DNA from: Candidatus Moranbacteria bacterium GW2011_GWC2_40_12
GTDB taxonomy: Bacteria; Patescibacteriota; Minisyncoccia; Moranbacterales; UBA11712
Assembly (NCBI GenBank): GCA_000995965.1
Contig: LBYD01000002.1
Location: forward strand, 199,889 to 263,888
Direction: 5' to 3'
Length of the DNA: 64,000 bases
In this document: in pieces, positions 10,454-46,360 of the stretch
Position numbering within the stretch: the first letter of the stretch is position 1
Layout: every line of letters starts with the position of its first letter
The notes under the pieces: generated by a model
The model's input: only the letters and a program-made list of their open reading frames with translations
Told to the model about the DNA's origin: nothing
The model's database searches: none
Translations under genes and position numbers: made by a program

Positions 10454-11227
10454 ATGGAAAGCCTGGTAAGAATTCCGCAGTCTGAGCTTAACGCAACACT
10501 GGAAAGGCTTAGCAAACTTGGTGTCACGCAAGAGCATTTCAAGCGTGTCCGCTCAAGCAGAAAATATGCTAAAGCCGTGGCGTCGGCATTTCTCGGCGAT
10601 GATGGTGTGGTGATGAGTTATAATGATGTTCGCACCATTCTCGGTCAGGATTTCATCACGCCCGAGGAAATCGCCATTGCTCGCAAGCTCACCTATGGCG
10701 ACGATGTGCTTCAGTATTTCACTGAAACGCTTCCGTCCGAGGAAGTGTTGCAGTGGCTCCGTGACAACGGCTTCGTGCTGATTGCGGGACCGCCCAGTCC
10801 GATGTCGCTCTTGGAAGTCCGCGACCTCAACGCCCAGCTCCTTTACACCAAGTCTGGCGGTTGGTATGCGGAAGCGAAGCAGAAATTCTCACGGGACGAT
10901 AAGGTGGTTTCTGAATGGCTTATGCTCCGCAAGGGCGTCGTGCCCAAATCCACGAGCAAAACGTGGGACGAACAGCAGAAGCTTCTTTCCGAGGCGGAAT
11001 GCGTTCCCAACGCTCCCGAAACGACGTGGGGCGAAACCACTTACAAGGAAGTCCGTAATGCGTGGCTGTTTCCCAGCATCTACGCCAGAACTTCTTCCGT
11101 GGACTCAGACGACAATCGCGTCTGCGTCGGCGATTCGGCGGGTGGCGGTGTCTACGTCGGCAGCGGCTGGGGCGACGACCGCCACGACGGCCTTGGTCTG
11201 GCGTCCGCTCAGAAACGAAACTCGTAA
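10454..11227 (+). CDS. DGR target protein (variable protein) with C-terminal variable region
   Basis: 257-aa ORF with a good RBS (aaaggaggt); the last ~40 codons (11095-11215) are a near-copy of the downstream TR with adenine-specific differences; GC (~52%) is higher than the surrounding genome; no signal peptide seen. Confidence 0.8.
   Translation: MESLVRIPQSELNATLERLSKLGVTQEHFKRVRSSRKYAKAVASAFLGDDGVVMSYNDVRTILGQDFITPEEIAIARKLTYGDDVLQYFTETLPSEEVLQWLRDNGFVLIAGPPSPMSLLEVRDLNAQLLYTKSGGWYAEAKQKFSRDDKVVSEWLMLRKGVVPKSTSKTWDEQQKLLSEAECVPNAPETTWGETTYKEVRNAWLFPSIYARTSSVDSDDNRVCVGDSAGGGVYVGSGWGDDRHDGLGLASAQKRNS
11095..11215 (+). other. DGR variable region (VR) inside the target gene
   Basis: 121-bp alignment to TR 11587-11707; 15 mismatches fall at TR adenines (to G, T or C), 1 T-to-G, 1 terminal G/A; the 3' 20 bp ccttggtctggcgtccgctc are identical (IMH-like). 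Confidence 0.85.
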
Positions 11228-11586
11228 CCTTGAAATCTTGTTCCTTTTGTATTCTTGAGCCTTCGGCGATTTTTTTTCTCGCTGGAGGCTCTTTTCTTTT
11301 GTCAAAAACACTGATAAGATAAAATCAATCTTGCTAATGCAAGTTAGGTTACGGCTTAACTTCGCGAGATGTCTTTTCTTTAGACCTTACCAGAATATCG
11401 TCGGCTACGGCTTGCGATAGCGTGCGAGCAAAGATGAGAGTTAATTTCTTGTTTGCTCTTAGTGGAGGTGTTCTGATTTTGTCATCGGAACTGCTCTCGA
11501 ATAAAATACAGGAAAGAGAGAATATAGTCCGCTTTTAGCGGAAGTAAATCTCAATTTCCAGTGGCTTTCAGACGGGAACAAACAAA

Positions 11587-11707
11587 TTCCGTGGACTCAG
11601 ACGACAATCACGTCAACGTCGGCAATTCGGCGAGTGGCGGTGTCAACGTCAACAACAACTGGGACGACAACCGCAACGACTACCTTGGTCTGGCGTCCGC
11701 TCGGAAA
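11587..11707 (+). other. DGR template region (TR), non-coding template repeat
   Basis: Direct repeat of VR, rich in AAC codons in the VR frame (NHVNVGNSASGGVNVNNNWDDNRND); lies between the target gene and avd, upstream of the RT. Confidence 0.85.
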
Positions 11708-11723
11708 TTATCTCAAGTCGAAA

Positions 11724-11756
11724 GTAAACGCTCTCCTTTTTTGGGAGAGCGTTTAC
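11724..11756. terminator. perfect hairpin (gtaaacgctctcc-tttttt-ggagagcgtttac) immediately 3' of avd on the minus strand and 3' of TR on the plus strand
   Basis: 13-bp stem with a 6-nt T/A loop, read directly from the sequence. Confidence 0.6.
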
Positions 11757-11757
11757 T

Positions 11758-12108
11758 TTAGCAGTCCTTTACGGATTTTATCCAGCCGCCGAGCATTCTT
11801 CCTATTTCATCCGTTTTTTCCTGAAGCAGGACATACTTTTTGCTGTCAATCGCTTTCACTTCTTTGGCAAGGCGGACAAAAATTCTGAAAAGGTTCAACT
11901 TCAAGCTGGCTTTTTCAAGGACTGGCAATTTTTCCACTTTGGACATTTGGCTGGCCAGCAGGATACTTTCCAGTGTTTCCAGCAAAATGTTTTCGCATTT
12001 CTGCCAGAGCGTATAGCGGTCTTGTTTGGGGACTGAATTTCTGAAGCTATAAAAGTTCCGATACAACTCGTAGATTTTTTTAAAGATCGGTATGTCAAAT
12101 TCTTCCAT
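11758..12108 (-). CDS. avd: Avd-like accessory variability determinant (four-helix-bundle protein)
   Basis: 117 aa from MEEFDIPIFKKIYELYRNFYSF...; basic helical protein of the 23S-rRNA-intervening-sequence/four-helix-bundle family that includes DGR Avd; adjacent to the DGR RT. Confidence 0.7.
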   Translation of the reverse strand: MEEFDIPIFKKIYELYRNFYSFRNSVPKQDRYTLWQKCENILLETLESILLASQMSKVEKLPVLEKASLKLNLFRIFVRLAKEVKAIDSKKYVLLQEKTDEIGRMLGGWIKSVKDC

Positions 12109-12120
12109 AGGTTTATTGTT

Positions 12121-13170
12121 ATGAAGATTTATAAAGATGTTTTTGAGAAAATAATTTCGCCTGAAAATCTTTTTTCGGCTTGGGACAATTTCAAAGTCGG
12201 AAAGATAAAAAAGAAAGATGTCCAGGCGTTTGAATCGAAGCTGGAACAAAACATTTTCCAGCTTCATCGGGAATTGAGGGGACGCTCGTATAGGCACGGC
12301 AGTTATGCCTCATTTTATATACGTGATCCGAAACAAAGACATATTCACAAAGCCGAAGTCAGAGACAGAATTTTGCATCATGCCGTTTTTTCTATCCTCA
12401 ACCCCATTTTTGAGGCAACCTTTATTTCCCATTCTTTTTCTTGCCGAATTGGAAAGGGAACGCATAAAGGCGTTATCGCTTTGGAAAAAATGATAAGAAA
12501 AGAGACGCAAAATTATTCCAGACGTTGCTTTATTTTGAAGTGCGACGTGAGGAAGTTTTTTGATACGGTTGACCACGGAATTTTGATGAGGATTTTGAAA
12601 AAGCGGATTAAGGACGAAAATGCACTCTGTCTGTTAAGAGAAATTATTAGCAGTTTTTCCTCCGAGCATTCGGACATTTTCACAGTCCGAGGTTTGCCGA
12701 TTGGCAATCTCACCTCCCAGCTTTTTGCCAATATCTTCCTCAACGAGCTTGACCAGTTTGTCAAAAACAAAATGCGTTTGAAATTCTATGCTCGCTATAC
12801 CGATGATTTCGTCATTGTCGGGAAAGACGAAAGAGAATTGAAAAATATGCTTTCGGAAATACGCTCATTCTTGAAAGATAGATTGTCCCTGGAACTCCAC
12901 CCGAAAAAAATCGTGATTAGAAAATATAGCCAAGGAATTGATTATCTTGGCTATATCGTTTTGCCTCACTATCAGCTACTCCGAACAAAAACGAAAAAGC
13001 GAGTGTTCAAAAAGTTGAAAATGCGGATTGGGCAATACAGGGCGGGGGAAATTAGCGAAAAATCTTTGAACCAATCCCTGCAATCCTATCTCGGCGTTTT
13101 TTCCCACGCCGACACGCACGAATTGGAGCAGGAACTTCTTAATCAATTTTGGTTTTGGTTGAATGAATAA
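12121..13170 (+). CDS. diversity-generating retroelement reverse transcriptase
   Basis: 349 aa; RT motifs including KCDVRKFFDTVDH and YARYTDDFVIVG (YxDD); DGR-hallmark motif LPIGNLTSQ ([I/L]GxxxSQ) replaces the group II intron QGxxxSP. Confidence 0.85.
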   Translation: MKIYKDVFEKIISPENLFSAWDNFKVGKIKKKDVQAFESKLEQNIFQLHRELRGRSYRHGSYASFYIRDPKQRHIHKAEVRDRILHHAVFSILNPIFEATFISHSFSCRIGKGTHKGVIALEKMIRKETQNYSRRCFILKCDVRKFFDTVDHGILMRILKKRIKDENALCLLREIISSFSSEHSDIFTVRGLPIGNLTSQLFANIFLNELDQFVKNKMRLKFYARYTDDFVIVGKDERELKNMLSEIRSFLKDRLSLELHPKKIVIRKYSQGIDYLGYIVLPHYQLLRTKTKKRVFKKLKMRIGQYRAGEISEKSLNQSLQSYLGVFSHADTHELEQELLNQFWFWLNE

Positions 13171-13259: not shown

Positions 13260-14489
13260 TTAATATATGAAACCCTTTACAGTCCGGCTGTTGGCATTGA
13301 TAGTCCGGGTTGATTTTTTTCCGAATCCGGCGTAGTTCATTTCGGAAATAGTTACGGAATTCCCGTTTACTTTCTCGACAATCCCGACATGGCCCCAGCG
13401 CGATTCTCCGGTTACGATAATCGCTCCTGCCTTTGGCGTCCGGCCGGTGGCCTTTCCGGAAGCGCGGGCGTTTGTCAGCCAGGCTCCGGCGTTTCCGCCC
13501 CAGGGAACGTATTTTCTTTGGGCTACGTACCATGTGCAATATCCGTATGGAAAGCGATGGCCGCCTCCAGCTCTTGCATCCATCCGATAAGAGCTTGACG
13601 CGGTTGCGTATTGCGCTCCATAAGCCCCTGTTCTGTAAGCAGGCGCTGTCGGAGCGGCAGATGGCGTCGGAGCTGAAATGTATCCGTCAGGAAGGATTAT
13701 TTCCTGGCCGACAGCTAGCTTTTCATCGGCTGGAAGCTCATTGTAAGCCAGAACCTTTTGCTTGTCAGAATTATATTTTGCCACAATAGCATCAAGAGTG
13801 TCACTTTTTTGGATTTTGTATCTAACGCCTGTAACTGGAAGAACAGAAAGCTTATCTCCCGGCTTGAGGAGCGAAGTATCAGAAAGATTGTTAGCCCAGA
13901 GTATCGTGCTTACGGAAATTCCATGTCGGGCGGCAATTGATCCGGCGGTATCCCCCTCCTTTACGATATAAGTCTTAGCCTCTCTTCCGTTTCCTCCCAT
14001 CACGGTTGGATTATAGGAAGCCAAAGTCACCTGGCTTTGAATGGTTGGAGCCCTGAAGTATGAAGCCGTATCATCATAACCTTCTTCTTGAATTTCCTCT
14101 AAAATAAAATACGCCGGATCAGCAAGTGGCGCAGTAGCAAGATTATTTTTGCTTTCGTTCTGAAGAGCGATTTTTTGCTTGAGCGTATTGTTTTCTTTTG
14201 AATTAATTCCAAAGGCGTCGAACAGCGAACCCGGAGCTCCCTTTGCAGAAGAAAAGTTTATGAGAGCCACGGTGGCAACACAGACCGCGACGACGATAGT
14301 TGCCGAATATTCCCTGAAAAATGAAAGAAGTTTTCGAGCGGCAAATCTTTTTTTGAGGAAAAAAACCAACCTTCTCTGAAGAGAGCGGTCGGTTCCATAA
14401 TGAATCACCTGATCCGCGCTGCGGATGGCGAGCGGATCTCCCAAAGTATTTTTTCCTCTTAGCACTATTCGCAATCTCTTCCAGGTCAT
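13260..14489 (-). CDS. membrane-anchored peptidoglycan hydrolase with two LysM domains and a C-terminal CHAP domain
   Basis: 409 aa; N-terminal TM anchor; two LysM repeats (YIVKEGDTAGSIAARHGISVSTILWANNL and YKIQKSDTLDAIVAKYN); CHAP-like Cys/His (GYCTWYV...GHVGIV). Confidence 0.8.
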   Translation of the reverse strand: MTWKRLRIVLRGKNTLGDPLAIRSADQVIHYGTDRSLQRRLVFFLKKRFAARKLLSFFREYSATIVVAVCVATVALINFSSAKGAPGSLFDAFGINSKENNTLKQKIALQNESKNNLATAPLADPAYFILEEIQEEGYDDTASYFRAPTIQSQVTLASYNPTVMGGNGREAKTYIVKEGDTAGSIAARHGISVSTILWANNLSDTSLLKPGDKLSVLPVTGVRYKIQKSDTLDAIVAKYNSDKQKVLAYNELPADEKLAVGQEIILPDGYISAPTPSAAPTAPAYRTGAYGAQYATASSSYRMDARAGGGHRFPYGYCTWYVAQRKYVPWGGNAGAWLTNARASGKATGRTPKAGAIIVTGESRWGHVGIVEKVNGNSVTISEMNYAGFGKKSTRTINANSRTVKGFIY

Positions 14490-28362: not shown

Positions 28363-29838
28363 ATGAAAAAGAAAAACAAAAAATATCTTGAAAATAAAAT
28401 TATAATTCTTTTTTTTGCTGTGTTTATTGCGCTGACGCTTTCCGGATGCGGCGCTCCGAAGGAAACTAGCTATAAAGTTGACCTTGAAATTTGGGGGCTT
28501 TTTGACGATTCGGATGCGTTTTCAAAAGCAATCCAAGAATACAAAAAAAGAAACAGCAGGGTAGGCGCGATTACCTATAAAAAAATGCCGGTTGATTCCT
28601 ATGAAAATGACCTTCGGGACGCTTTGGCGATCGGGAAAGGGCCGGATATCTTTCTTATCCATCACACCTGGCTGGCAAAGCATCTCGACAAACTTGAGCC
28701 TGCGCCACTGGAAATGGGAACCGGCAATGGCGAAAAGGCTGTCTTCATCACGCCAAGAAAAGTCCAGGAATATTTTGCGGATGTTGTCCAGAAAGATTTC
28801 GTGAACGGCTCAAATGTTTATGCGCTGCCCCTCTCGGTCGATTCTTTGGCTCTTTATTATAATAAAGATATTCTCAATCAGGCGGGGATTTCACGTCCTC
28901 CAAAAACGTGGGAAGAATTTGACAGTGATGTCCAGAAAATCACCAAGATTGACTCATTTGGGAACATCATTCTTGCCGGAGCGGCGATGGGAGTCTCCAG
29001 CGACCGTCCCGAAAATCTCGGCGGCGGAAAAATCAACCGGGCTACCGACATCTTGACGCTTCTTATGATGCAGGCAGGAACCGAAATGTTTGATTCCGAG
29101 AGAAAAATGGCCAAGTTTTCCGAATTCTCTTCTTCTGATACCGGAAAAGACAAATTTCCCGGACAAATGGCGCTTGAATACTACACGAAATTTTCAAATC
29201 TCAATTCAAGCCAATATACTTGGAATGCGCAAATGCATAATTCGATTGATGCTTTCGTAGAAGGAAAGACAGCTATGACAATCAACTATTCTTGGCTTAT
29301 TCCGCGAATCCAAGACAAAGCTCCGAAGCTCAATTTTGGCATTGCCCCAGTTCCTCAAAATAAGGATCAAAACAATAAAGGAATCAACGCTAACTTTGCC
29401 AATTATTGGGGCTTGGCAGTTTCAAAAAGCAAGATTATGGCAACTGACGAGGGGCAACCAGCCACGGCGACAAATGAACAGAGGATCACCGAAGCCTGGA
29501 GGTTTCTTGCTTATCTCACGATGGGTTCTGAAGAAATTTCTCCTTTTATCGGAGCAGCATCCAGTGAAGTGGCTGGATACAATCCAGCGGAGGAATATGC
29601 CGAAAAACAAAGAAAGCCCGCAGCGCGGCGGGACCTTATTGAAAAGCAGAAAGAAGATTTGCTTCTCTCGCCTTTTGCCCAAGGGAACCTCATTGCCCGT
29701 TCCTGGCCGGAACCGGACAATCTGGCGGTGGAGAAAATATTTGATGAGATGATTGACGATGTGGTTCTCCGGAATGAAAAATCAGGTGAAGTCATCCGCC
29801 AAGCCCAAAATAGCGTCAATCTGCTGATAAAGAGATAA
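28363..29838 (+). CDS. ABC-transporter-type extracellular solute-binding lipoprotein (family 1, sugar-type); no permease or ATPase adjacent
   Basis: Start chosen at MKKKNKKYLENKIIILFFAVFIALTLSGCG (lipobox LSGC); SBP_bac_1-like sequence; stop overlaps the start of the next gene (taATGtcc). Confidence 0.7.
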   Translation: MKKKNKKYLENKIIILFFAVFIALTLSGCGAPKETSYKVDLEIWGLFDDSDAFSKAIQEYKKRNSRVGAITYKKMPVDSYENDLRDALAIGKGPDIFLIHHTWLAKHLDKLEPAPLEMGTGNGEKAVFITPRKVQEYFADVVQKDFVNGSNVYALPLSVDSLALYYNKDILNQAGISRPPKTWEEFDSDVQKITKIDSFGNIILAGAAMGVSSDRPENLGGGKINRATDILTLLMMQAGTEMFDSERKMAKFSEFSSSDTGKDKFPGQMALEYYTKFSNLNSSQYTWNAQMHNSIDAFVEGKTAMTINYSWLIPRIQDKAPKLNFGIAPVPQNKDQNNKGINANFANYWGLAVSKSKIMATDEGQPATATNEQRITEAWRFLAYLTMGSEEISPFIGAASSEVAGYNPAEEYAEKQRKPAARRDLIEKQKEDLLLSPFAQGNLIARSWPEPDNLAVEKIFDEMIDDVVLRNEKSGEVIRQAQNSVNLLIKR

Positions 29839-30518
29839 TGTCCCAAGTTACAAAAATTATAAAGGAAAATAAAATTTTGATGAAAACGATATATTTTACA
29901 GGAAAGAAATATATTATCGGATTATTTTTGATTGTCTTGTTTATCCTTAGTGCAAAAATATCTGAAGCGGCTTATTTAACAAACGCTCAGTGTGCTGCAC
30001 AGGGAGGAAGATGTAATTGGGTTTCAAATATTTGCTCATCTGACGAGACACTGGTGGGTCTCTGTGAAGGAGGAGCTTTTTCACAGGGAGCCTGTTGTAA
30101 ACCAAACACAACCCCATCACCTACCCCATCACCTACCCCATCACCTACCCCATCACCTACCCCATCACCTACCCCATCACCTACCCCAATATCAACAGCA
30201 GATACTAGCGGATCACTTGTCCCCTGCACCAATAATTGCACACTTTGCGACATTATCGTCGGCCTCAACAGAATTTTCAAATATCTGGGCACTCTTTTGG
30301 TCATTGTTGCGATTCTTTTCATCATAATTGCCGGAATTGCCTATATGGTTTCGGGCGGAAGCAAGAATTTGACTGAATGGGCGAAAAAAGCGCTGATGTA
30401 CGCTCTGGTCGGTTTTGTAATATATCTCGCTTCCTGGATGATTGTTGGTTCGATTCTTTCAGCTATGGGATACAACAGAACTGGCTGGTCGACATTTGAT
30501 TGCGAAAGCGGATCTTAG
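29838..30518 (+). CDS. secreted protein: signal peptide, Cys-rich domain, (PTPS)n linker, T4SS-pilin-like (TrbC/VirB2-type, PF18895-like) two-TM domain
   Basis: 226 aa; CAAQGGRCNWVSNICSSDETLVGLCEGGAFSQGACC, then PSPTPSPTPS..., then LVPCTNNCTLCDIIVGLNRIFKYLG plus two TM helices; an alternative start is MKTIYF at 29880. Confidence 0.7.
   Translation: MSQVTKIIKENKILMKTIYFTGKKYIIGLFLIVLFILSAKISEAAYLTNAQCAAQGGRCNWVSNICSSDETLVGLCEGGAFSQGACCKPNTTPSPTPSPTPSPTPSPTPSPTPSPTPISTADTSGSLVPCTNNCTLCDIIVGLNRIFKYLGTLLVIVAILFIIIAGIAYMVSGGSKNLTEWAKKALMYALVGFVIYLASWMIVGSILSAMGYNRTGWSTFDCESGS
30111..30190 (+). repeat. 12-bp tandem repeat (cccatcacctac x ~6) encoding the PSPT linker
   Basis: Direct perfect tandem copies within a CDS; a degenerate copy lies at 30976-31020 in the next gene. 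Confidence 0.8.
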
Positions 30519-30535
30519 CCGAAAAAAAACAAAAA

Positions 30536-31621
30536 ATGAAAAAGTCATATTTTCAACCCGTTATCGTTTTCACGATTGTTCTTTTGACAATAATATTTTT
30601 TTTGCAAATCGCAATTTTATCCCCGGCCGTGCTTGCCGATGACGACAGCACCGGAGGACTGGTTCCCTGCAACAACAAATGCACCCTTTGCCATATTCTG
30701 ATCGGTCTTCAAAACATATTCAAATATCTCATTGGCCTGCTTTTTGTCGCTACGATGTTTTTTGTCACCTTAAATGGCGCGCTGATGATGGTTTCAGCCG
30801 GAAGCAAGAAGATTATCGGCCAGGTAAAAACCGCTCTTGGCTACTGCCTGAAAGGTTTCCTCCTTTTTCTTATCTGCTGGGTTATTGTCACGGGTATCAT
30901 GAAAACACTGGGCTACAGGCAACTCAACAATTGGTGGCAGTTTGAATGTGACACGACTCAAGCAGAACCACCGGTATCACCTACCCCATCACCAACCCCG
31001 TCACCGACCCCAACTCCTACAAATAAATCATGCAAAGACATTGGCGGTATCTGTCGAATTTGGCATCCTTCGATGGAGGGGCAATCGAAGTGCGAGGAAG
31101 GAGAGCAGCCCCGAGAAGATTACAAGTGCCCAAATTCGGGAGAAATTTGCTGTATCACAAAGGCAATCTGGAATTGTGCCGACGCTGCGGCCGCGGCTCG
31201 AGAAGTAATTAATAATTATATGAAACTAGTAAACAGTGGCCAGCAATATGGTGCTAAGTTACCAGGCGATATAATAAAGGAAACTGCAAACTGTGGTTCA
31301 TCGTGCAATTGGTCTTGGCAGTCTGCCGGTCTGCCGGATTTCTGGAGTCTGAAACGGAGTGAATGGGACGGAAACCCAAATTCTTTGCAGCCGGGCGACA
31401 TTTGCTTACTAGTTTCGAATGATCCTAACGCACAAGGTGACGCTAAATATCCGCATGCGTTTATGATTTTGGATCAAAATGGCATGACAACTATGGCAAG
31501 CCCTAAAATCAATATCACATATAGTAAGGATGGGTTAAACTATAATATTAATCGACTAAAACCAGAAAATTTACATATTGAAGTAGTTCGTATTTCAGAC
31601 GTGGTTTGCAAGAACAAATAG
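30536..31621 (+). CDS. secreted fusion protein: T4SS-pilin-like domain, PT linker, Cys-rich domain, C-terminal putative papain-like (CHAP/NlpC-P60-like) cysteine peptidase domain
   Basis: Start chosen at MKKSYFQPVIVFTIVLL; LVPCNNKCTLCHILIGLQNIFKYL pilin core; CKDIGGICRIW...CEEGEQPREDYKCPNSGEICC; C-terminal domain with candidate catalytic Cys (ANCGSSCNWSW) and His (PHAFMIL). Confidence 0.6.
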   Translation: MKKSYFQPVIVFTIVLLTIIFFLQIAILSPAVLADDDSTGGLVPCNNKCTLCHILIGLQNIFKYLIGLLFVATMFFVTLNGALMMVSAGSKKIIGQVKTALGYCLKGFLLFLICWVIVTGIMKTLGYRQLNNWWQFECDTTQAEPPVSPTPSPTPSPTPTPTNKSCKDIGGICRIWHPSMEGQSKCEEGEQPREDYKCPNSGEICCITKAIWNCADAAAAAREVINNYMKLVNSGQQYGAKLPGDIIKETANCGSSCNWSWQSAGLPDFWSLKRSEWDGNPNSLQPGDICLLVSNDPNAQGDAKYPHAFMILDQNGMTTMASPKINITYSKDGLNYNINRLKPENLHIEVVRISDVVCKNK

Positions 31622-31641
31622 AATTAAGGTGGAATAAACTC

Positions 31642-32379
31642 ATGTCTCTCAAAAAAATTTTTATTGCTACCGGAATTGTTATAATCATCGCCGTTTCGGT
31701 GATTTGGCTCTATCTCTCGTCCCAAAAAGAGGAAAATATTTCCCCAGAGCCAACGCAAAACGAGGAGAGTGCTGTTCCGGCCGCTCTTCCCTCTGGAACA
31801 GAATCTTCTGGAAATTTGGAAAATGTCGAAAAAGCGCGAAAAATATTTGAAAATCTCATTCAGGAAAAGATTTCCGACAAAACAAAAAAAGACGGATCAA
31901 AAAAAGTTGATTTCAGGGATCAAAAAGGGAATCTGATCCCCCTTTCGGATTTCGAAAATGCGCTTGGCGTCGAAATATACCCTAAACTTAAGGAATATTT
32001 GAACAATGGATATCAAGTATTTTATTGCCCTGGAGCGGACGGGGAAAAAACATTCGGTGTTTATCTGGAGTATAATCAAGAAAAAGTTTATAAGGGGTTC
32101 ACTTATGATGTTTTGGATATGATGAAAGGTTGGGAAAATTCAATTTTCCCCAATTTTCACACAGTTTTGTTTCCCGATTTTGATTTCAATAAAGACAGCT
32201 TGAATCAAAAAATCGAGTTTCGAGATGGAAAATACAGATATGCCGAAGTAAATTTTCCCGACGGAAAAAAGAGCTCCATTCAATACGATGCTGTTGAATC
32301 TGGAATTATTATCGCCGCTTCCTCCTCTTGTCTCGACAATGTGCATCAATATTATGAACCCATATTGCCGCAGCCATAA
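31642..32379 (+). CDS. hypothetical N-terminally membrane-anchored protein
   Basis: Start chosen at MSLKKIFIATGIVIIIAVSVIW (TM anchor); no recognisable domain. Confidence 0.5.
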   Translation: MSLKKIFIATGIVIIIAVSVIWLYLSSQKEENISPEPTQNEESAVPAALPSGTESSGNLENVEKARKIFENLIQEKISDKTKKDGSKKVDFRDQKGNLIPLSDFENALGVEIYPKLKEYLNNGYQVFYCPGADGEKTFGVYLEYNQEKVYKGFTYDVLDMMKGWENSIFPNFHTVLFPDFDFNKDSLNQKIEFRDGKYRYAEVNFPDGKKSSIQYDAVESGIIIAASSSCLDNVHQYYEPILPQP

Positions 32380-32400
32380 TCATAATTTTTTTACAAAACA

Positions 32401-32985
32401 ATGAAAAAAATCATACTCCCCCTCGTTATTCTCTTGGCAATATTTTTTCTTCAAGCCAGGCCGGCATTTGCCGCCTCCATTGATTTCACAAACCCTTTGA
32501 CTGCCACCGATCTCAAGACCGTTTTGACGAATATCATGACATACCTCAGAAACATTGCCGGATCAATCGCCCTCCTTTTTATCGTTATCGGCGGGATTAT
32601 GTATATTGTCTCAACCGGCGACAAGGATAGAATGGAGCGCGCGAAAAACACTCTCATTTACGCCCTTGCCGGGTTTGCCATCGTATTAGCCGCATCTACT
32701 TTCACCTCCGAAATTCAGACGGCTCTCGGAGAGAGCGTGACATCCACCGGCGGACCCACTCTAGCGCAGATTATCCTCAATGTTTTGAGACTCCTTTTGT
32801 CAATCGTGGGATCTCTTGCTATAATAAGCATAGTGATCGGCGCCATTTGGATGTTCTCCGCCGGGGGAGATAAAGAAAGGTATGAGCTCGGGAAAAAAAC
32901 TGTGATCTATTCAATAGTCGGCGTGACGGTCGTTTTGATTTCCGTAATCGTCCTCAACCAAATCAAGACATTGATTGGCGGATAA
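32401..32985 (+). CDS. tandem-duplicated T4SS-pilin-like (PF18895-like) protein, two pilin modules
   Basis: 194 aa; signal peptide; two repeats of the pattern [amphipathic helix]-TM-SxGD/GGDKER-AK.T.IY-TM. Confidence 0.7.
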   Translation: MKKIILPLVILLAIFFLQARPAFAASIDFTNPLTATDLKTVLTNIMTYLRNIAGSIALLFIVIGGIMYIVSTGDKDRMERAKNTLIYALAGFAIVLAASTFTSEIQTALGESVTSTGGPTLAQIILNVLRLLLSIVGSLAIISIVIGAIWMFSAGGDKERYELGKKTVIYSIVGVTVVLISVIVLNQIKTLIGG

Positions 32986-33035
32986 AAACCCGAAAAAAAA
33001 TAATTTCGATGAAATTTGTGAGAGGAGGTGAATAA

Positions 33036-33392
33036 ATGAAAAAGAAAATACAATCTGTTGTGAGAAAAGTTTGGGCGGTGGCCTTTCTGTTTCCGCTGGT
33101 GGCATCGGCTCAATTTACAAAGCCCGGGAATACTGGTTTGCCTACTGGAACAATTTTCAACATTATCAAAGGTATTATGAACTGGCTTTTGGGAATTCTG
33201 GGGTTTGTGGCCGTTATTGGTTTTGTCGTAAGCGGAATCATGTTTCTTATTGCAGCTGGTGATGAAGACCGCCAAAAAACCGCCAAAAAAGCCATGTTTT
33301 ATTCAATTACGGGTGTCATTGTGGGCTTGGTTGGTTATGTAGCCTTGTTGGCGATTGAGGCAATGTTGAACGCGTCATCCGCGACATTCTGA
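33036..33392 (+). CDS. T4SS-pilin-like (PF18895-like) protein
   Basis: 118 aa; signal peptide (AVAFLFPLVASAQ); IIKGIMNWLLGILGFVAVIGFVVSGIMFLIAAGDEDRQKTAKKAMFYSITGVIVGLVGY. Confidence 0.7.
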   Translation: MKKKIQSVVRKVWAVAFLFPLVASAQFTKPGNTGLPTGTIFNIIKGIMNWLLGILGFVAVIGFVVSGIMFLIAAGDEDRQKTAKKAMFYSITGVIVGLVGYVALLAIEAMLNASSATF

Positions 33393-33532
33393 CCAGATAA
33401 ATATTTCTGAAAAGGTTTCCTTTGCGGCTTCGTTTCCAATGGAGCCGCTTTTTATTTGGATTGTATATTGCATAGTCTTCCTCGAAAAGCTATAATAAGC
33501 TCGGCGAGAAAAATAATTATTTTGAGACAAAA

Positions 33533-33931
33533 ATGAAAAAGACAATATGTTGCTATCTCACAACGACTAGAAATAAAAAGAAAATATTTATCGAAATATT
33601 TTTTGCTGTTTTCTTTTTAGTTATTTTTCTTCCAGGAGCGATTTTTGCTCAAGGTGTGCCCATTCCATCCGAGAGCCTGCCCGCGGGCAGTGATTTGAAA
33701 ACGGTGGTTGAGAATTTCATGAAGTGGCTTCTTGGCATCTTTGGTTTTTTGGCAATTATCGCTTTTATCGTAAGTGGAATAATGTATCTTACTTCTGGCG
33801 GTGACAAGGAGAGAGCGGAAACAGCTAAAAAAGCCATGAATTATTCCGTCATAGGGGTAATTGCAGGTTTATCGGGATATCTGATTATCCAAGCCATTGA
33901 AAGCTGGCTCGGTGGTTCTACTACTTTTTAG
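33533..33931 (+). CDS. T4SS-pilin-like (PF18895-like) protein
   Basis: 132 aa; signal peptide; MKWLLGIFGFLAIIAFIVSGIMYLTSGGDKERAETAKKAMNYSVIGVIAGLSGY. Confidence 0.7.
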   Translation: MKKTICCYLTTTRNKKKIFIEIFFAVFFLVIFLPGAIFAQGVPIPSESLPAGSDLKTVVENFMKWLLGIFGFLAIIAFIVSGIMYLTSGGDKERAETAKKAMNYSVIGVIAGLSGYLIIQAIESWLGGSTTF

Positions 33932-34072
33932 CCACAGCGCAGGCAATGCTTGTTTTTAAATTTCTCTGCGCGAAACTTTTCGCTCCGCGCTTTTTTATGG
34001 CTTGATTATATAATGAGCAGGAGTTATTATAATAAATGCTTCTGGAATGGCAGATTCACCCCGCACCATTTT

Positions 34073-34154
34073 GGGTGAGTGGCGAAATTGGCATACGCAC
34101 TAGCCTTAGGAGCTAGCGGGGCGACCCATGGAGGTTCGAGTCCTCTCTCACCCA
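34073..34154 (+). tRNA. tRNA-Leu (anticodon TAG), class II with long variable arm
   Basis: acceptor gggtgag/ctcaccc, 3-bp D-stem, anticodon arm ctagc-ctTAGga-gctag, variable arm gggg-cga-ccc, T-arm ggagg-ttcgagt-cctct. Confidence 0.8.
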
Positions 34155-34214
34155 AAAAATTAGATCAAAAAATGGTGCGGGGCACACCAGCCCCCGCACT
34201 AAATTGCTCCGCAA

Positions 34215-36998: not shown

Positions 36999-37550
36999 AT
37001 GCGTATTTTGGCGACGCTGGCTCTTTTGGGGGCAGTCTTCGCAAATCCTCAATTTTCCTCGAAGGCTTTGGCCCAGGGAGCCTCTGACCAAAATATAGAG
37101 CAAAAATCAAAAAGTGAATCAAATACAATTGAAAACAAGATAATTTCAGCAAATGATAATTTTATCGCTTCAGCTTATATTCCGGAAGTGAATCCCAAGA
37201 AGCTTGCGTATTTCGAACGATTGAGAAAAAATATCAAGCTAATTGACTATTCAAAGCTTCCCAGCGGCGATTTCACCATCAATGCTTCTGCCTATACGGC
37301 GGCGGCTGATGAGTGCGGAAAGTCAGACGGGATTACCGCCAGCGGACGGAAAGTTATGGAAGGCCGGACGCTCGCTTGTCCTCCGGGATATACTTTTGGA
37401 ACCAAGATTGAGATTGACGGAATGGGAACCTATGTCTGTGAGGACCGCGGCGGAGCGATCAAAGGAAACCACTTTGACATCTATGTTGAGACAAAAAAAC
37501 AAGCTTTCGCTTTCGGACGAAGAAATCTTTTGGCGAGAGTCGTGAAATAA
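36999..37550 (+). CDS. secreted 3D-domain (MltA/YuiC-like) cell-wall protein
   Basis: 183 aa; signal peptide; C-terminal ADECGKSDGITASG...GTYVCEDRGGAIKGNHFDIYV with three conserved Asp (3D domain). Confidence 0.75.
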   Translation: MRILATLALLGAVFANPQFSSKALAQGASDQNIEQKSKSESNTIENKIISANDNFIASAYIPEVNPKKLAYFERLRKNIKLIDYSKLPSGDFTINASAYTAAADECGKSDGITASGRKVMEGRTLACPPGYTFGTKIEIDGMGTYVCEDRGGAIKGNHFDIYVETKKQAFAFGRRNLLARVVK

Positions 37551-43390: not shown

Positions 43391-46009
43391 TTATGGATTT
43401 GGATTCGGCTGTTCTGCGGGCGGGTTCTGCTCCTGATTCTGTTCTGTGGATGGGCTCTGGATGGGTGTTTCAGGTGGAACAGGCTCCTGTTCGCGCCTGA
43501 CAGTCGGGGCATTTTGTCCACTCTGTGCTCCTTGATCTGAATCGGTCACGTCCAAACCGTCAAGAGCGTTATTGCCGGACTTGAGATTAGAAACGATTTT
43601 TTTCACGTCCTCATTGTCCGGATTGAGCTCGGCGACTTTTTCAAATTGTTCAAGAGCTTTCGCTTTATCGTTCTTTTTGTCATAAACAAGGCCCAGGAAA
43701 TATCGGGCGTTAGAATAGTTTTCCGCCAACTTCACGGTTTGCTCCAGCTCCGTCTGAGCCTGGTCATATTTTTCCGCTTTGTAGTAGAAAACCCCGAGCT
43801 GGAAGGTGATTCCCGGATCCTGCGGATTCATTTTCTTGCTTTCTTCGAGTTTGGCGATAGCCTGGTCTATTTCGCCGAGACGGTCAAGGCAAACCGCAAT
43901 CATGAATTGAGCAGGAATATAGTTTCCCTTTTGCTCAACTGATTTTTCAAAATTTTGCCGGGCTGAAGCGATATATTCCTTAGCCTTTTCTGGAAGCTGA
44001 ACACTTTTTCCGGTTTGTTGCTGACCAGCGCTCTTAGCAGTTTCGATATCAGCCATCATGAGATAAATTTGACCGATTTGATAATAGACCGAAGGATTCT
44101 TTGGATCGTATTTCAATGCTTCCATATAATTATCGCGGGCAGTTTGGTCAGCGCCGTCCTTTGAGCCTACAACGTTTTGATTTATCTGGGCCATTTGGAC
44201 CAGGTTATCGGGATTTTTTGGATTGAGATTGATAGCGGCTCGAGCTTGATCTTCAGCAGCAAAATAAAGGCTTGAAATTTGAGCCCTGTCATCGTCGCTC
44301 AAATTGGCAAGGCCTTTTTCGGAAACTTTTTGGTTGAGCATCGCGAAAAGAGCCACTGACAAATTGCGATGATAAAGATCCCTCGAGGGGTCGAGGTTGA
44401 CCACCTTCGAGAGATTATTGACTAAATCCTCGACATTTCCTCCCTGAACGTCGCTTGCAAGAGCCTTATTGTAAGCGGCGGCGGCAACGTACCTTTGGCC
44501 TTCAAGAAAGATAAGAGAGATAAAGCCGACAATAATCAGGACAAAGACGAAAGAAAGTATCAGAGACACCCGAGGCGAAGAAGTTTCACTGATGAGCTCT
44601 TCTTTTTTTCGAAAAACAATTGATGTCAGAACAACCATTGAAGCCGTAATTACCCACCAAAGAAAATCTAAAGTGATATTTGACGGATAGAAGAAGAAAG
44701 CGATAGTGAGATATATCCAAACAGCCGCAATTCCTATCAATGTATAAGCTCCCTCTTCGCTTCGGCCGAAGATTTTTACAAACGAGGAAAATATGTGAAC
44801 TAGGATTGCCCCCATAAGAAAAATAATCGCCAAAGCCCCAAGAAATCCAGTTGATGTGGCCAAAGTGAAGAATCGGCTGCTTCCCTCATTGAACTTCACC
44901 GACCAAAAATTTGTAAGATTGATTTCAGCAGGTTTGCTCTTCAAATAAGCAAGGTCATAAGCCGAAAGTCCGGATCCCAAAAGAAATTTATCTTTCCATG
45001 TTCCTTTGATAACGTCAAAAGAAGCACTTTGAGAAAGGCCGACTTCAACCGGAAGTTGGACGCTTACGATGGAACGGCTTTTTCCAATAAGAGCTGCTAA
45101 AAGAACAAGAGTGAGTATAACCATAGGAAAAACCAAGGTTCGATTTTTCTCTTCATTTCCTCCAGTTATGATTGAAAGTCCCAAGAGGACTGCCATACCG
45201 ACCAAGAAAATAACGAGTGTTGTGGAAAAATTGATCATAATCAGAGTAAAAGTAAAAAGAAGAGCCAGAATGATCAGGGCAATTTTCACAATAATAGGCT
45301 GCTTCTCAAGAAGCATAGCGACAGAGATTATCAGGATTGCTCCAATAAAAATAGAAAAGGCATAAATAGAACCAACCGAGTTAAAAGAGTTTTGGGCGAT
45401 CGCTGGATTTTTAAACATAAACTTTCCGAAAAGCTGGAAGAGGGCATAAATATTGGCAATGGCCGCGGAACCAATCAAAGTGAGAATAAGAATCTGTATT
45501 TTCTTCCTCGAGTTAAAATTATTAGTTATAACAAAAAATAGGGCAATAAGACCAATAAAACTAACAAGAGACAAACTTTCTGTTCCGAGGGCTCCCCACA
45601 TGCTTTGGTCACGGTAGGTAGAAAATATTGTACTTAAAGAATAAATTAGAAGAAGCAGCAACAAAGGCACAAGAAGAAAATTTTTCTTTATACGAATCCG
45701 GCCCTCCCAGGCAAGTTTTCCTATCCATGCAAGAAAAGCAATCCCGCCCAAACCCACAATCAGAAGCTGCTTATTGAGTTCAAGAATACTCGGTACCGTG
45801 GGAAGAAAAAATAAAGGAGTTAAAAAAGCCAGCAAATAGACAACTCCGATGATTATCCAGTCAATGACTATTGGTATTCGAGTGTCCTTTTTGAAATTAG
45901 GAGCCGGAGAGTGCGGCGTTGACGCGTTTTTTTGTTCAGGTCTGGGACCAGTAAAACTAATTTCGGGCCTTTTTGGCGCAATTCCCTCTCTTCTAAGATC
46001 GATTTTCAT
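43391..46009 (-). CDS. large polytopic membrane protein with O-antigen-ligase-like TM core and C-terminal TPR repeats
   Basis: Start chosen at MKIDLRREG; ~12 TMs followed by ~8 TPR-like repeats (AEDQARAAINLNPKNPDN...YYKAEKYDQAQTELEQ...). Confidence 0.65.
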   Translation of the reverse strand: MKIDLRREGIAPKRPEISFTGPRPEQKNASTPHSPAPNFKKDTRIPIVIDWIIIGVVYLLAFLTPLFFLPTVPSILELNKQLLIVGLGGIAFLAWIGKLAWEGRIRIKKNFLLVPLLLLLLIYSLSTIFSTYRDQSMWGALGTESLSLVSFIGLIALFFVITNNFNSRKKIQILILTLIGSAAIANIYALFQLFGKFMFKNPAIAQNSFNSVGSIYAFSIFIGAILIISVAMLLEKQPIIVKIALIILALLFTFTLIMINFSTTLVIFLVGMAVLLGLSIITGGNEEKNRTLVFPMVILTLVLLAALIGKSRSIVSVQLPVEVGLSQSASFDVIKGTWKDKFLLGSGLSAYDLAYLKSKPAEINLTNFWSVKFNEGSSRFFTLATSTGFLGALAIIFLMGAILVHIFSSFVKIFGRSEEGAYTLIGIAAVWIYLTIAFFFYPSNITLDFLWWVITASMVVLTSIVFRKKEELISETSSPRVSLILSFVFVLIIVGFISLIFLEGQRYVAAAAYNKALASDVQGGNVEDLVNNLSKVVNLDPSRDLYHRNLSVALFAMLNQKVSEKGLANLSDDDRAQISSLYFAAEDQARAAINLNPKNPDNLVQMAQINQNVVGSKDGADQTARDNYMEALKYDPKNPSVYYQIGQIYLMMADIETAKSAGQQQTGKSVQLPEKAKEYIASARQNFEKSVEQKGNYIPAQFMIAVCLDRLGEIDQAIAKLEESKKMNPQDPGITFQLGVFYYKAEKYDQAQTELEQTVKLAENYSNARYFLGLVYDKKNDKAKALEQFEKVAELNPDNEDVKKIVSNLKSGNNALDGLDVTDSDQGAQSGQNAPTVRREQEPVPPETPIQSPSTEQNQEQNPPAEQPNPNP

Positions 46010-46360
46010 TTTAGTGTCTTTGATAATTATTAAAAAATGTATTTTTAGGCATAACAATACCCCGCTTCTTCCATGGGTCAAGAAATATATCCTATTCGGT
46101 TGTTTTTTTACCCCTCACCAATTCCAACCAGCTTCTTTATTTATTCACAGCAGATAGCGGTGCGACTGCCTTCTTTCCGCGTGAATTAAGTAAAAATGTA
46201 TTCAGAATTAGTGAGAAGTGAATTTTGACCCGAGACTGCGGGGTGGTTTTGTAATTTCATTATAACAGTTCAAAATAAATACGCAAACCCATTAAATAAT
46301 CTAAACATTTTGCAGGTTTTTGTCTTTGCAATTTTCGTGCTGGAGCTAATCATAAAATAA

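Follow-up and report, generated by a model that had tools for sequence, protein, structure and literature searches.

An array of five VirB2/TrbC-type pilin genes, two of which carry additional domains fused to their pilin modules, lies on the chromosome of a member of Candidatus Moranbacteria, an ultrasmall groundwater bacterium. The array spans positions 29838–33931 of the window, that is, the whole 64,000-nt stretch of DNA that was analyzed. Seven genes at 28.3–34.0 kb of the window are read from one strand, the + strand, in the order SBP, A, B, X, C, D, E, where SBP encodes a solute-binding lipoprotein, A to E encode pilins with six VirB2/TrbC-type modules among them, and X is a non-pilin gene. 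We lean, by a modest degree, to the reading that this is a chromosomal pilin array set apart from virB4 genes, in which the lead subunits A and B display wall-attacking heads. A VirB2-like pilin array in a Patescibacterium, possibly unlinked from virB4, is an already known kind of object, a point that the earlier note from the sequence alone had missed. Not found described in the cited literature are pilins with exchangeable hydrolases, a beta-defensin-like head, gene X, and the coupling to the SBP gene. The literature searched, which took in no subscription journals, held nothing relevant on pilin–hydrolase fusions or on pilin-borne polymorphic toxins. Such fusions are in principle visible in the PF18895 domain-architecture listings, so they are better called not discussed than never seen.

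The pilin assignment derives from profile searches, paralogy, and structure prediction. The curated Pfam cut-offs are 26.6 bits for PF18895 (T4SS_pilin, where T4SS is the type IV secretion system) and 27.9 bits for PF04956 (TrbC/VirB2). Scores for PF18895 are 35.6 bits for A, 74.8 for C (E 5.7e-21), 41.2 for D (E 1.7e-10), and 39.2 for E (E 7.3e-10), and C and E also exceed the TrbC cut-off, at 44.7 and 36.7 bits. That earlier note had likened all five genes to these families; four of them stand above curated cut-offs, and B follows by paralogy. The module of B is 43% identical to that of A over 112 aa (BLASTP, E 4e-30), and two B orthologs, the proteins P0010 and P0014, pass PF18895. The six modules align gap-free through the hairpin and share an SxG(D/S)K...AK...Y loop; the identities of the paralogous modules to that of A are 23–43%. 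Hydropathy gives each of A to E an N-terminal signal-like segment, with cleavage sites judged by eye, and two hydrophobic segments per module. For B, AlphaFold2 predicts the helical hairpin that the earlier note had led us to expect, formed by helices at residues 47–86 and 91–125. One homolog of E carries the NCBI name 'TrbC/VirB2 family protein', and the NCBIfam entry for the Mbov_0395 pilin-like conjugal transfer protein matches D at 33.1 bits, under its cut-off of 40. A hidden Markov model of the module, run against the six-frame translation of the window, found no further copy, and X lacks a pilin module. The class III prepilin motif G|F(T/S)L(I/V)E was absent from all six proteins by regular expression, and a reading of the array as type IV pilus pilins was rejected on that ground. 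These comparisons support A to E as VirB2/TrbC-type pilins.

Genes A and B encode the cargo-bearing pilins, and for both the earlier note had the domains and their order right. A (29838–30518, 226 aa) consists of a signal peptide (about aa 1–44), a six-Cys beta-defensin-like domain (aa 52–87, nt 29991–30098), a PT linker of (TPSP)x6.5 (about nt 30105–30194), and a C-terminal pilin module (aa 121–226, nt 30198–30515); its hydrophobic segments lie at aa 20–47, 145–175, and 185–210. B (30536–31621, 361 aa) has a signal peptide (aa 1–34), a pilin module ending in WWQFECDTTQ (aa 35–145, nt 30638–30970), a PT linker (aa 144–163), a six-Cys domain (aa 166–206, nt 31031–31153), and a C-terminal domain of ~150 aa (aa 214–361, nt 31175–31618). 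The proposal that A and B are domain-shuffled paralogs is supported by the relative P0010, in which one pilin module is joined both to A's head and to B's enzyme. The modules of A and B form a separate subfamily with four invariant cysteines, called Cys4 here: PC-x3-CTLC precedes helix 1 and W-x-F-x-C follows helix 2. These four end cysteines could staple the module by disulfide. Cys4 pilins such as A and B always stand first in the array, and cargo is fused at the ends of the pilin module only.

The C-terminal domain of B, which the earlier note had registered as an extra domain without recognizing its NlpC/P60-like nature, is predicted to be a divergent NlpC/P60-like peptidoglycan endopeptidase, not a proven member of the family. 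It aligns with a PF00877-positive domain at the matching position in orthologs, which score 24.8 (P0005), 26.1 (P0008), 25.1 (P0009), and 29.9 bits (the ortholog in locus L011) against a cut-off of 23. Cys253 (nt 31292–31294) and His307 (nt 31454–31456) are invariant in 11 aligned sequences. The domain is modeled with a predicted local distance difference test score (pLDDT) of 85–93; helix 253–263 opens at Cys253 and strand 307–311 at His307, where the pLDDT is near 90. That Cys253 begins a helix and His307 a strand, an arrangement known from papain-like hydrolases, is counted in favor of the NlpC/P60 superfamily. With the whole-protein model of B as the Foldseek query, six of the top eight matches are papain-like or wall hydrolases (1ukf, 9ubf_A, 8auc, and 4q68 being such matches). 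The entry 9ubf_A (probability 1.0, TM-score 0.62) is Acd33800, an autolysin of C. difficile described as a 'Tn916-like CTn7-Orf16' wall hydrolase; other top matches are AvrPphB, Cg1735, and a Bacteroides amidase. A profile of the B-domain family, run against PDB sequences, matched CwlO (E 6.5e-5), MepS (E 6.9e-5), Spr, and two hydrolases of Tn916-like conjugative elements. The family profile was needed for this, as the single-sequence PDB search returned only a chance Fn3 match (E 0.36).

The cargo of B is exchanged between relatives. Fifteen related loci or contigs from other species were examined; the locus search with a narrow module alignment gave 11 loci. Identities to the window proteins were taken by tblastn, and those for the contig of P0010 come from separate comparisons. 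Locus L010 has a B pilin module 92% identical to that of the window, a cargo at 71%, and an X ectodomain at 80%; in L009 the three values are 91%, 41%, and 69%. In L007 and L008 the pilin module is kept at 89% and 88%, the cargo is not alignable, and the X ectodomain falls to 45% and 31%, respectively. L015 has a pilin module at 46%, a cargo at 30%, and an X ectodomain at 68%; in the P0010 contig, the values are 44%, 48%, and 60%. The cargo of L008 is a different domain, of the PF00877 NlpC/P60 type, and comes without a six-Cys head. A third, unalignable and Cys-rich C-terminal cargo is found in the B orthologs at L012:9659–10807, L013:5545–6810, L014:5557–6912, and L017:3478–4485; it reads SCHxGG...AAD...HxHxS...CGC, with invariant His, Asp, and HxH. 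A by-eye likeness of this cargo to M15/LAS zinc peptidases was unsupported by Pfam or by a PDB profile search. In P0015, the cargo is yet another one, with a motif of a similar kind and a faint match to a Hedgehog domain. The switch point lies directly after the invariant WWxFxCDTTQ that closes the pilin module. By these alignments, close relatives keep the pilin module (88–92%) while the cargo is exchanged.

Gene X (31642–32379, 245 aa), on which the earlier note is silent, lies between B and C. The note's description of five consecutive same-strand genes thus holds for the strand and fails for consecutive. X has an N-terminal membrane anchor, a low-complexity linker, and an alpha/beta ectodomain at aa 57–240 with two invariant Cys, for which AlphaFold2 gives pLDDT >90. 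X has no match in Pfam or NCBIfam, and Foldseek returned no PDB match for it (best E 0.098, probability 0.08) and none in BFVD. An equivalence to VirB8 or VirB5 was dropped, since no VirB8-like (NTF2-like) structure appeared in the top 50 Foldseek matches. All 30 X homologs collected are syntenic. In every Moranbacteria-type locus examined (L007–L017, and more weakly L022, at 24% by tblastn), X lies downstream of the Cys4 pilin that bears the cargo; it is absent where the lead pilin is cargo-free (L018 and L019) and from the distant L021.

The divergence of X appears to follow the cargo and not the rest of the genome. The X ectodomain is 60–80% identical in exactly the four of 13 loci with an alignable cargo (L010, L009, L015, and the P0010 contig), the last two of which are distant genomes. 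In the other nine loci, L007 and L008 included, it is 24–45% identical, independent of pilin identity. An exact split of this kind would arise by chance once in 715 times by simple combinatorics that ignore relatedness between loci. As read from the alignments, X and the cargo vary as a polymorphic effector and a partner inherited along with it would. X, a membrane-anchored ectoprotein that is passed on together with the cargo as one block, most likely serves as a partner to that cargo. That X is an inhibitor or immunity-like protein is a tentative assignment to which we give less than even weight; otherwise, X would be an assembly factor.

The six-Cys domain ahead of B's enzyme, and at the N-terminus of A, has the common pattern C-x3-GG-x-C ... 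C ... [ILV]G-x-C ... CC. It occurs in 22 of ~190 collected family proteins, at times in two or three copies. A profile of the domain gave seven matches at E <=10 among PDB sequences, all of them proteins with the beta-defensin fold, comprising four beta-defensins (best E 0.006) and three chains of the tick carboxypeptidase inhibitor. The profile was also compared by hhalign with a profile of ten beta-defensins entered by hand, giving a probability of 84.9%, a P of 6.4e-6, and a score of 24.85, with all six Cys aligned. In 150 column shuffles the mean score was 7.1 (standard deviation 1.1) and the maximum 11.4, so that none reached 24.85. Alpha-defensins and cis-defensins, used as controls, scored 9.0 and 11.1 at probabilities of about 1% or less. 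In the model of B, the six-Cys region has three short strands at pLDDT 62–75.

The beta-defensin likeness is, by these comparisons, genuine as far as the cysteine framework and motifs are concerned. With the beta-defensins and other trans-defensins, the domain shares the C-x3-GG-x-C ... [ILV]-G-x-C ... CC framework and the alignment of six Cys. It differs in being bacterial, in being embedded in a larger protein, in its longer loops, and in not being cationic in A. The likeness is known here from the sequence framework, and the same pattern could arise by homology or convergence. Trans-defensins have been described from animals only, and bacteria have cis-defensins only (PMC11561630); no bacterial beta-defensin was described in the literature searched.

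A perfect tandem repeat of 12 nt, ACCCCATCACCT x6.5, at 30111–30188 (TRF, 100% matches), encodes the stalk behind A's head. In loci otherwise >=99.9% identical (L001–L006), the repeat is found in runs of 2, 3, 6, and 7 copies and in split runs of 3+6 and 7+5, and the gene calls for A are broken in two near-identical assemblies. The variation in copy number may be a real variation in stalk length or an assembly collapse at the repeat.

The fusion of a pilin module to a hydrolase is not a one-off, since at least 23 hits to peptidoglycan hydrolase domains were counted among the 144 closest representatives of the Cys4 module. The Cys4 module profile finds 24,636 representative proteins at E <=1e-3 and 4,230 at E <=1e-10. 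The closest 150 are mostly 250–850 aa long, with the module N-terminal, central, or C-terminal. A Pfam scan of the closest 144 gave PF18895 in 126, TrbC in 16, NlpC/P60 in 16, SLT in 3, SLT_3 in 3, and Amidase_5 in 1. Among the 25 families listed for these 144, there was no other recurrent, recognizable non-pilin extracellular domain, the rest being scattered low-count membrane-protein families. Some proteins found with the Cys4 profile have up to eight tandem modules; P0081, P0075, P0088, and P0046 are single polypeptides with 6–8 tandem pilin modules and lengths of up to 820 aa.

Gene C (32401–32985) is the short end of this tandem-module series. It encodes a signal peptide and the two tandem modules that the earlier note had seen, at about nt 32473–32736 and 32737–32982; PF18895 matches it in two stretches, and four hydrophobic segments follow the signal peptide. 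The gaps between A, B, X, and C are ~20 nt or shorter. D (33036–33392, 118 aa) and E (33533–33931, 132 aa, with a long signal peptide) are small single-module pilins and candidate major subunits. Terminator-like hairpins follow D (33424–33448, an 11-bp stem and then a T run) and E (33939–33953), the latter marking the end of the array. D and E have in common a C-terminal ...S-x-TF (ASSATF at 33375–33392 and GGSTTF at 33914–33931). This common tail could be a processing or recognition signal.

Machinery for assembling such pilins is not encoded nearby. The 64-kb window has no ATPase of a T4SS or type IV pilus (VirB4, VirD4, VirB11, or PilB), and there are no T4SS genes in the 8.6 kb past its left end. 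The open reading frames (ORFs) with a Walker-A motif and an assigned identity are ComM/Mg-chelatase, UvrD, FtsH, cytidylate kinase (Cmk), and IF-2 only, in agreement with the note's remark that the window lacks a secretion ATPase; the remaining matches to the motif are a TPR protein, a 3D-domain protein, and two small ORFs of 137–153 aa that lie outside the Pfam scan. The locus is present at >=99.9% nucleotide identity in six public contigs, including GCA_001000395.1 (GW2011_GWF2_44_10), GCA_001784895.1, and a 294-kb JGI contig. GCA_001000395.1 is listed as 'VirB4: Yes' (PMC12102498, Table S1). With a near-identical assembly listed as VirB4-positive, the lack of an ATPase in the window is not anomalous, and the ATPase is probably encoded elsewhere in the genome. 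Separation of this sort has precedent. In a survey of 3,035 Patescibacteria genomes, VirB2-like pilins were found in 1,948 VirB4-positive assemblies and near virB4 in 1,135; arrays of 2–11 VirB2-like genes, some split by one non-pilin gene, were found in 383 assemblies, with a mean paralog identity of 25% and a maximum of 54%, and VirB1 was unrecognized in most VirB2-bearing Patescibacteria (PMC12102498). The window array, with five pilin genes, the one non-pilin gene X between two of them, and identities of 23–43%, is of this kind. In S. epibionticum, the pilin array lies inside a T4SS cluster and is essential (PMC10633639; PMC12857230). The role of the essential T4SS and pilin arrays in Patescibacteria has been called 'completely unknown' (PMC11665869).

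We suggest the following mechanism. Sec export and signal-peptide cleavage would leave each hairpin in the membrane with both ends outside. A VirB4/VirB6/VirB3 machine from elsewhere would extract D and E, and probably C, into a filament, with D and E as the likely bulk subunits. A and B would join as rare or tip subunits with their stalked heads facing outward, and the heads would bind and cut peptidoglycan met by the pilus. As known from the structures of the F- and T-pilus, VirB2-type pilins keep both ends outside the membrane and, in the pilus, at its surface, with the loop turned toward the lumen. With both module ends outside, cargo fused to either of them would point outward, and the topology would also permit tandem modules like those of C. 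A role of A and B as rare or tip subunits is considered likely because they are always first in the array, putatively Cys-stapled, and cargo-bearing. As for the target of B's hydrolase, the wall of a partner or host cell is a serious candidate, if short of a probable one, because the cargo is polymorphic in the manner of polymorphic effectors and comes with a defensin-like head and a variable stalk. That the target is the cell's own wall, in a VirB1-like opening, is more doubtful; the similarity of the enzyme to Tn916-type hydrolases and the fact that VirB1 is reported to be scarce point that way. The boldest version, in which the T4SS pilus is a weaponized filament, with polymorphic 'warhead' pilins bearing exchangeable hydrolases and a genuine beta-defensin-fold domain, and with X for self-protection, we regard as a long shot.

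Several observations weigh against an array with wall-attacking lead pilins. B has no Pfam match of any kind, PF18895 and PF00877 included, and the hairpin region of its model is of moderate pLDDT (65–76). The Foldseek E-values for B are only about 3e-3 at best. The third catalytic position of PF00877 is His in the PF00877-type orthologs and Ser or Ala in B's subtype; the domain is called NlpC/P60-like, rather than a proven member, because this residue is not kept. No experiment on polymerization of PF18895 proteins is reported in the cited array literature, and a head of 200 aa may not fit the helical lattice of a VirB2-type pilus. Within 10 kb of the array, neither the window nor any of 13 related loci has VirB4 or another T4SS gene. 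For this population, VirB4 is reported in the published listing of one near-identical assembly, and a second one, GCA_001784895.1, is listed as 'VirB4: No' (PMC12102498). The positive listing is taken as the informative one because the assemblies are metagenome drafts. Finally, homologs of X accompany mutually unrelated cargo types, an unusual trait in an immunity protein, and the co-variation of X with the cargo could reflect mere physical linkage, with recombination in the flanking conserved pilin modules.

The main rival reading dispenses with the filament. The hairpins would be membrane anchors only, and A and B would be surface ectoproteins, one an adhesin-like knot and the other a wall hydrolase. 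PT-rich stalks are typical wall-spanning spacers, and the stalk would span the wall here. In this lineage, the array never adjoins genes for T4SS machinery, a pilus lattice would hardly accommodate bulky cargo, and the hydrolases PrgK and TraG of Gram-positive T4SSs are membrane-anchored, as far as the reference list of PMC12102498 indicates. We nevertheless hold this reading to be rather unlikely, as it leaves unexplained the three cargo-free pilin genes (C, D, and E) in the same operon in every relative, the tandem proteins with up to eight modules, the family's frequent place beside virB4 in other Patescibacteria (PMC12102498), and the essential pilin array of S. epibionticum (PMC10633639). 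A different proposal makes B the missing VirB1 equivalent, an enzyme that opens the cell's own wall for passage of the T4SS or pilus and is regulated by X. Such a role would suit the scarcity of VirB1 noted above, the presence of the Tn916-like conjugative-element hydrolases 9ubf_A and 4hpe among B's closest solved relatives, and the anchoring of the enzyme beside the cell's own wall. A housekeeping opener should be conserved, however, yet relatives with pilins 88–92% identical carry different enzyme domains, and a defensin-like head and a variable stalk are unneeded for local remodeling. We consider this role possible and doubtful at once.

Another alternative treats the pilin module as a carrier, from which the cargo would be cleaved after WWxFxCDTTQ and released as a soluble defensin-like peptide and hydrolase. 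TrbC/VirB2 pilins are known to undergo C-terminal processing, the invariant motif sits exactly at the boundary of conserved and variable sequence, and the layout resembles the pre-toxin demarcation motifs of polymorphic toxins. The locus has no protease gene, however, and A's cargo is N-terminal, so that one C-terminal cleavage rule cannot serve both A and B. The Cys of the motif is more simply taken as part of a disulfide staple with the N-terminal PCxxxCTLC, and release of the cargo appears improbable. Small two-transmembrane proteins adjoining a wall hydrolase might also recall a phage-type lysis cassette or defective prophage, with two-helix holin-like proteins and an endolysin, and there are weak Pfam hints of endolysin-like domains in relatives. 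We give this almost no credence: the gyrA–SBP–array–rluD–rplS position is conserved across distant relatives, all the proteins have cleavable signal peptides, TrbC matches exceed the cut-off, and no phage genes lie nearby. The synteny and signal peptides were the grounds for its rejection. We retain the array of pilins with wall-attacking lead subunits as the working reading.

Comparison with known systems shows what is shared and what is particular. Like the VirB2 arrays of Patescibacteria (Quinonero-Coronel et al. 2025, PMC12102498), the window array has divergent PF18895/TrbC genes in tandem with one non-pilin gene between them, in a monoderm lineage with a T4SS related to the MPF-FATA class, and paralog identities within the published range. 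Related published arrays are SEML1_0006–0019 of S. epibionticum (Wang et al. 2023, PMC10633639) and the 'Sec secreted array' of TM7x. Unlike the Patescibacteria arrays, that of the window is unlinked from virB4, keeps a fixed housekeeping position behind a coupled SBP lipoprotein gene, and has two cargo subunits, with a beta-defensin-like head and an exchangeable hydrolase, and the partner X. The published arrays are most abundant in Microgenomatia and Saccharimonadia, whereas the window array is in Paceibacteria. With the TrbC/VirB2/TraA pilins of RP4, Ti, and F, the window pilins share a signal peptide, two hydrophobic helixes, a short charged loop, and, for C and E, matches to TrbC. They differ in their monoderm host, the lack of adjacent virB3/virB4, and the tandem and cargo-bearing forms; no machinery for head-to-tail cyclization is evident, and A and B have four end Cys instead. 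The Mycoplasma integrative and conjugative element proteins Mbov_0395/MMCAP2_0565 (NF045849) are likewise VirB2-like two-helix proteins of a wall-less or monoderm lineage. In NCBIfam, NF045849 ranks first for A, D, and E and near the top for C (E 3e-8 to 3e-5), at scores of 23.6–33.1 bits that all fall under the cut-off of 40, so that A, C, D, and E are not members.

The hydrolase of B resembles the wall hydrolases of Gram-positive T4SSs, namely PrgK (pCF10), TraG (pIP501), and the Tn916 Orf14-like hydrolases (PDB 9ubf and 4hpe), in being a predicted T4SS-associated, membrane-tethered cysteine peptidase of NlpC/P60 or CHAP type; enzymes of this group rank with its best matches by structure and by sequence profile. 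Its tether would be a VirB2-like hairpin, not a plain transmembrane helix, and the enzyme is polymorphic between close relatives and has a six-Cys domain ahead of it. With polymorphic toxins (VgrG/PAAR fusions of the type VI secretion system, CdiA-CT, and Rhs), the system shares a conserved delivery module, an invariant boundary motif, an exchangeable C-terminal enzyme, and a co-varying small gene. Here, however, the delivery module is a T4SS pilin, every assigned cargo is a peptidoglycan hydrolase, and X, unlike classical immunity genes, is homologous across cargo types.

The array follows an SBP gene (28363–29838) encoding 491 aa from an MKKKNKKYL start, assigned to SBP_bac_1 (Pfam PF01547, E 2.6e-23), with a lipobox LSGC and a single hydrophobic segment. 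The stop of this gene overlaps the start of A in a TAATG at 29838, so the coupling of the array to a solute-binding lipoprotein gene, as claimed in the earlier note, is borne out. The same one-base overlap of SBP stop and first pilin start is found in L016 and in the distant L019, the pilin module of which is only 20% identical and the binding protein of which matches SBP_bac_1 at E 3e-40. Of the 15 related loci or contigs, 13 (L009–L017, L019, L021, L022, and the P0010 contig) have an SBP gene upstream of the array, in most of them directly next to it; the contigs of L008 and L018 stop short of this region. The 64-kb window encodes neither a permease nor an ATPase of the ABC type to partner the SBP. 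In loci that include the flanks, the usual order is a gene for an MBL-fold protein, a small membrane protein, GyrA, the SBP lipoprotein, the Cys4 pilin, (X), further pilins, RluD, and L19. An exception is L021, where the 20-kb locus lacks gyrA and a gene for a BipA-type GTPase separates the SBP gene from the pilins. The array occupies a vertically inherited housekeeping site and is not part of a mobile element.

Other features of the window may be recorded briefly. A tRNA-Leu gene lies downstream of the array at 34072–34155, and further on, at 36999–37550 (+), is a gene for a 3D-domain (MltA/RlpA-like) protein, the position of which is kept in relatives. A second wall-active protein near the array is a LysM-LysM-CHAP hydrolase (13260–14489, − strand). 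An 896-aa protein (43391–46081, − strand) has C-terminal TPR repeats and a 640-aa N-terminal part without a family match. A diversity-generating retroelement occupies 10454–13170. Its variable repeat (11095–11215) lies at the 3′ end of a 257-aa ORF without a Pfam family, and its template repeat (11587–11707) is 121 nt long and 86% identical, with 15 of the 17 mismatches at template adenines. The reverse transcriptase gene is at 12121–13170 (RVT_1, E 5.5e-27). On the public contig, a gene for the accessory protein bAvd is annotated between the template repeat and the reverse transcriptase. Finally, an ORF for a LAGLIDADG-type homing endonuclease (56853–57887; PF14528, E 8e-13) sits between tRNA-Ala (56754–56827) and tRNA-Ser (57966–58055).

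For the biology of Patescibacteria, a pilin array with wall-attacking lead subunits would suggest that the hydrolase function missing as VirB1 may be hidden inside pilin fusions and that a pilus may act directly on a cell wall. A true beta-defensin fold in the six-Cys domain would also be relevant to where the trans-defensins came from. Should the weaponized filament prove true, its head would be the first trans-defensin-type module outside animals, and the array would represent a new delivery class of polymorphic toxin systems and a concrete route by which Patescibacteria breach host walls.

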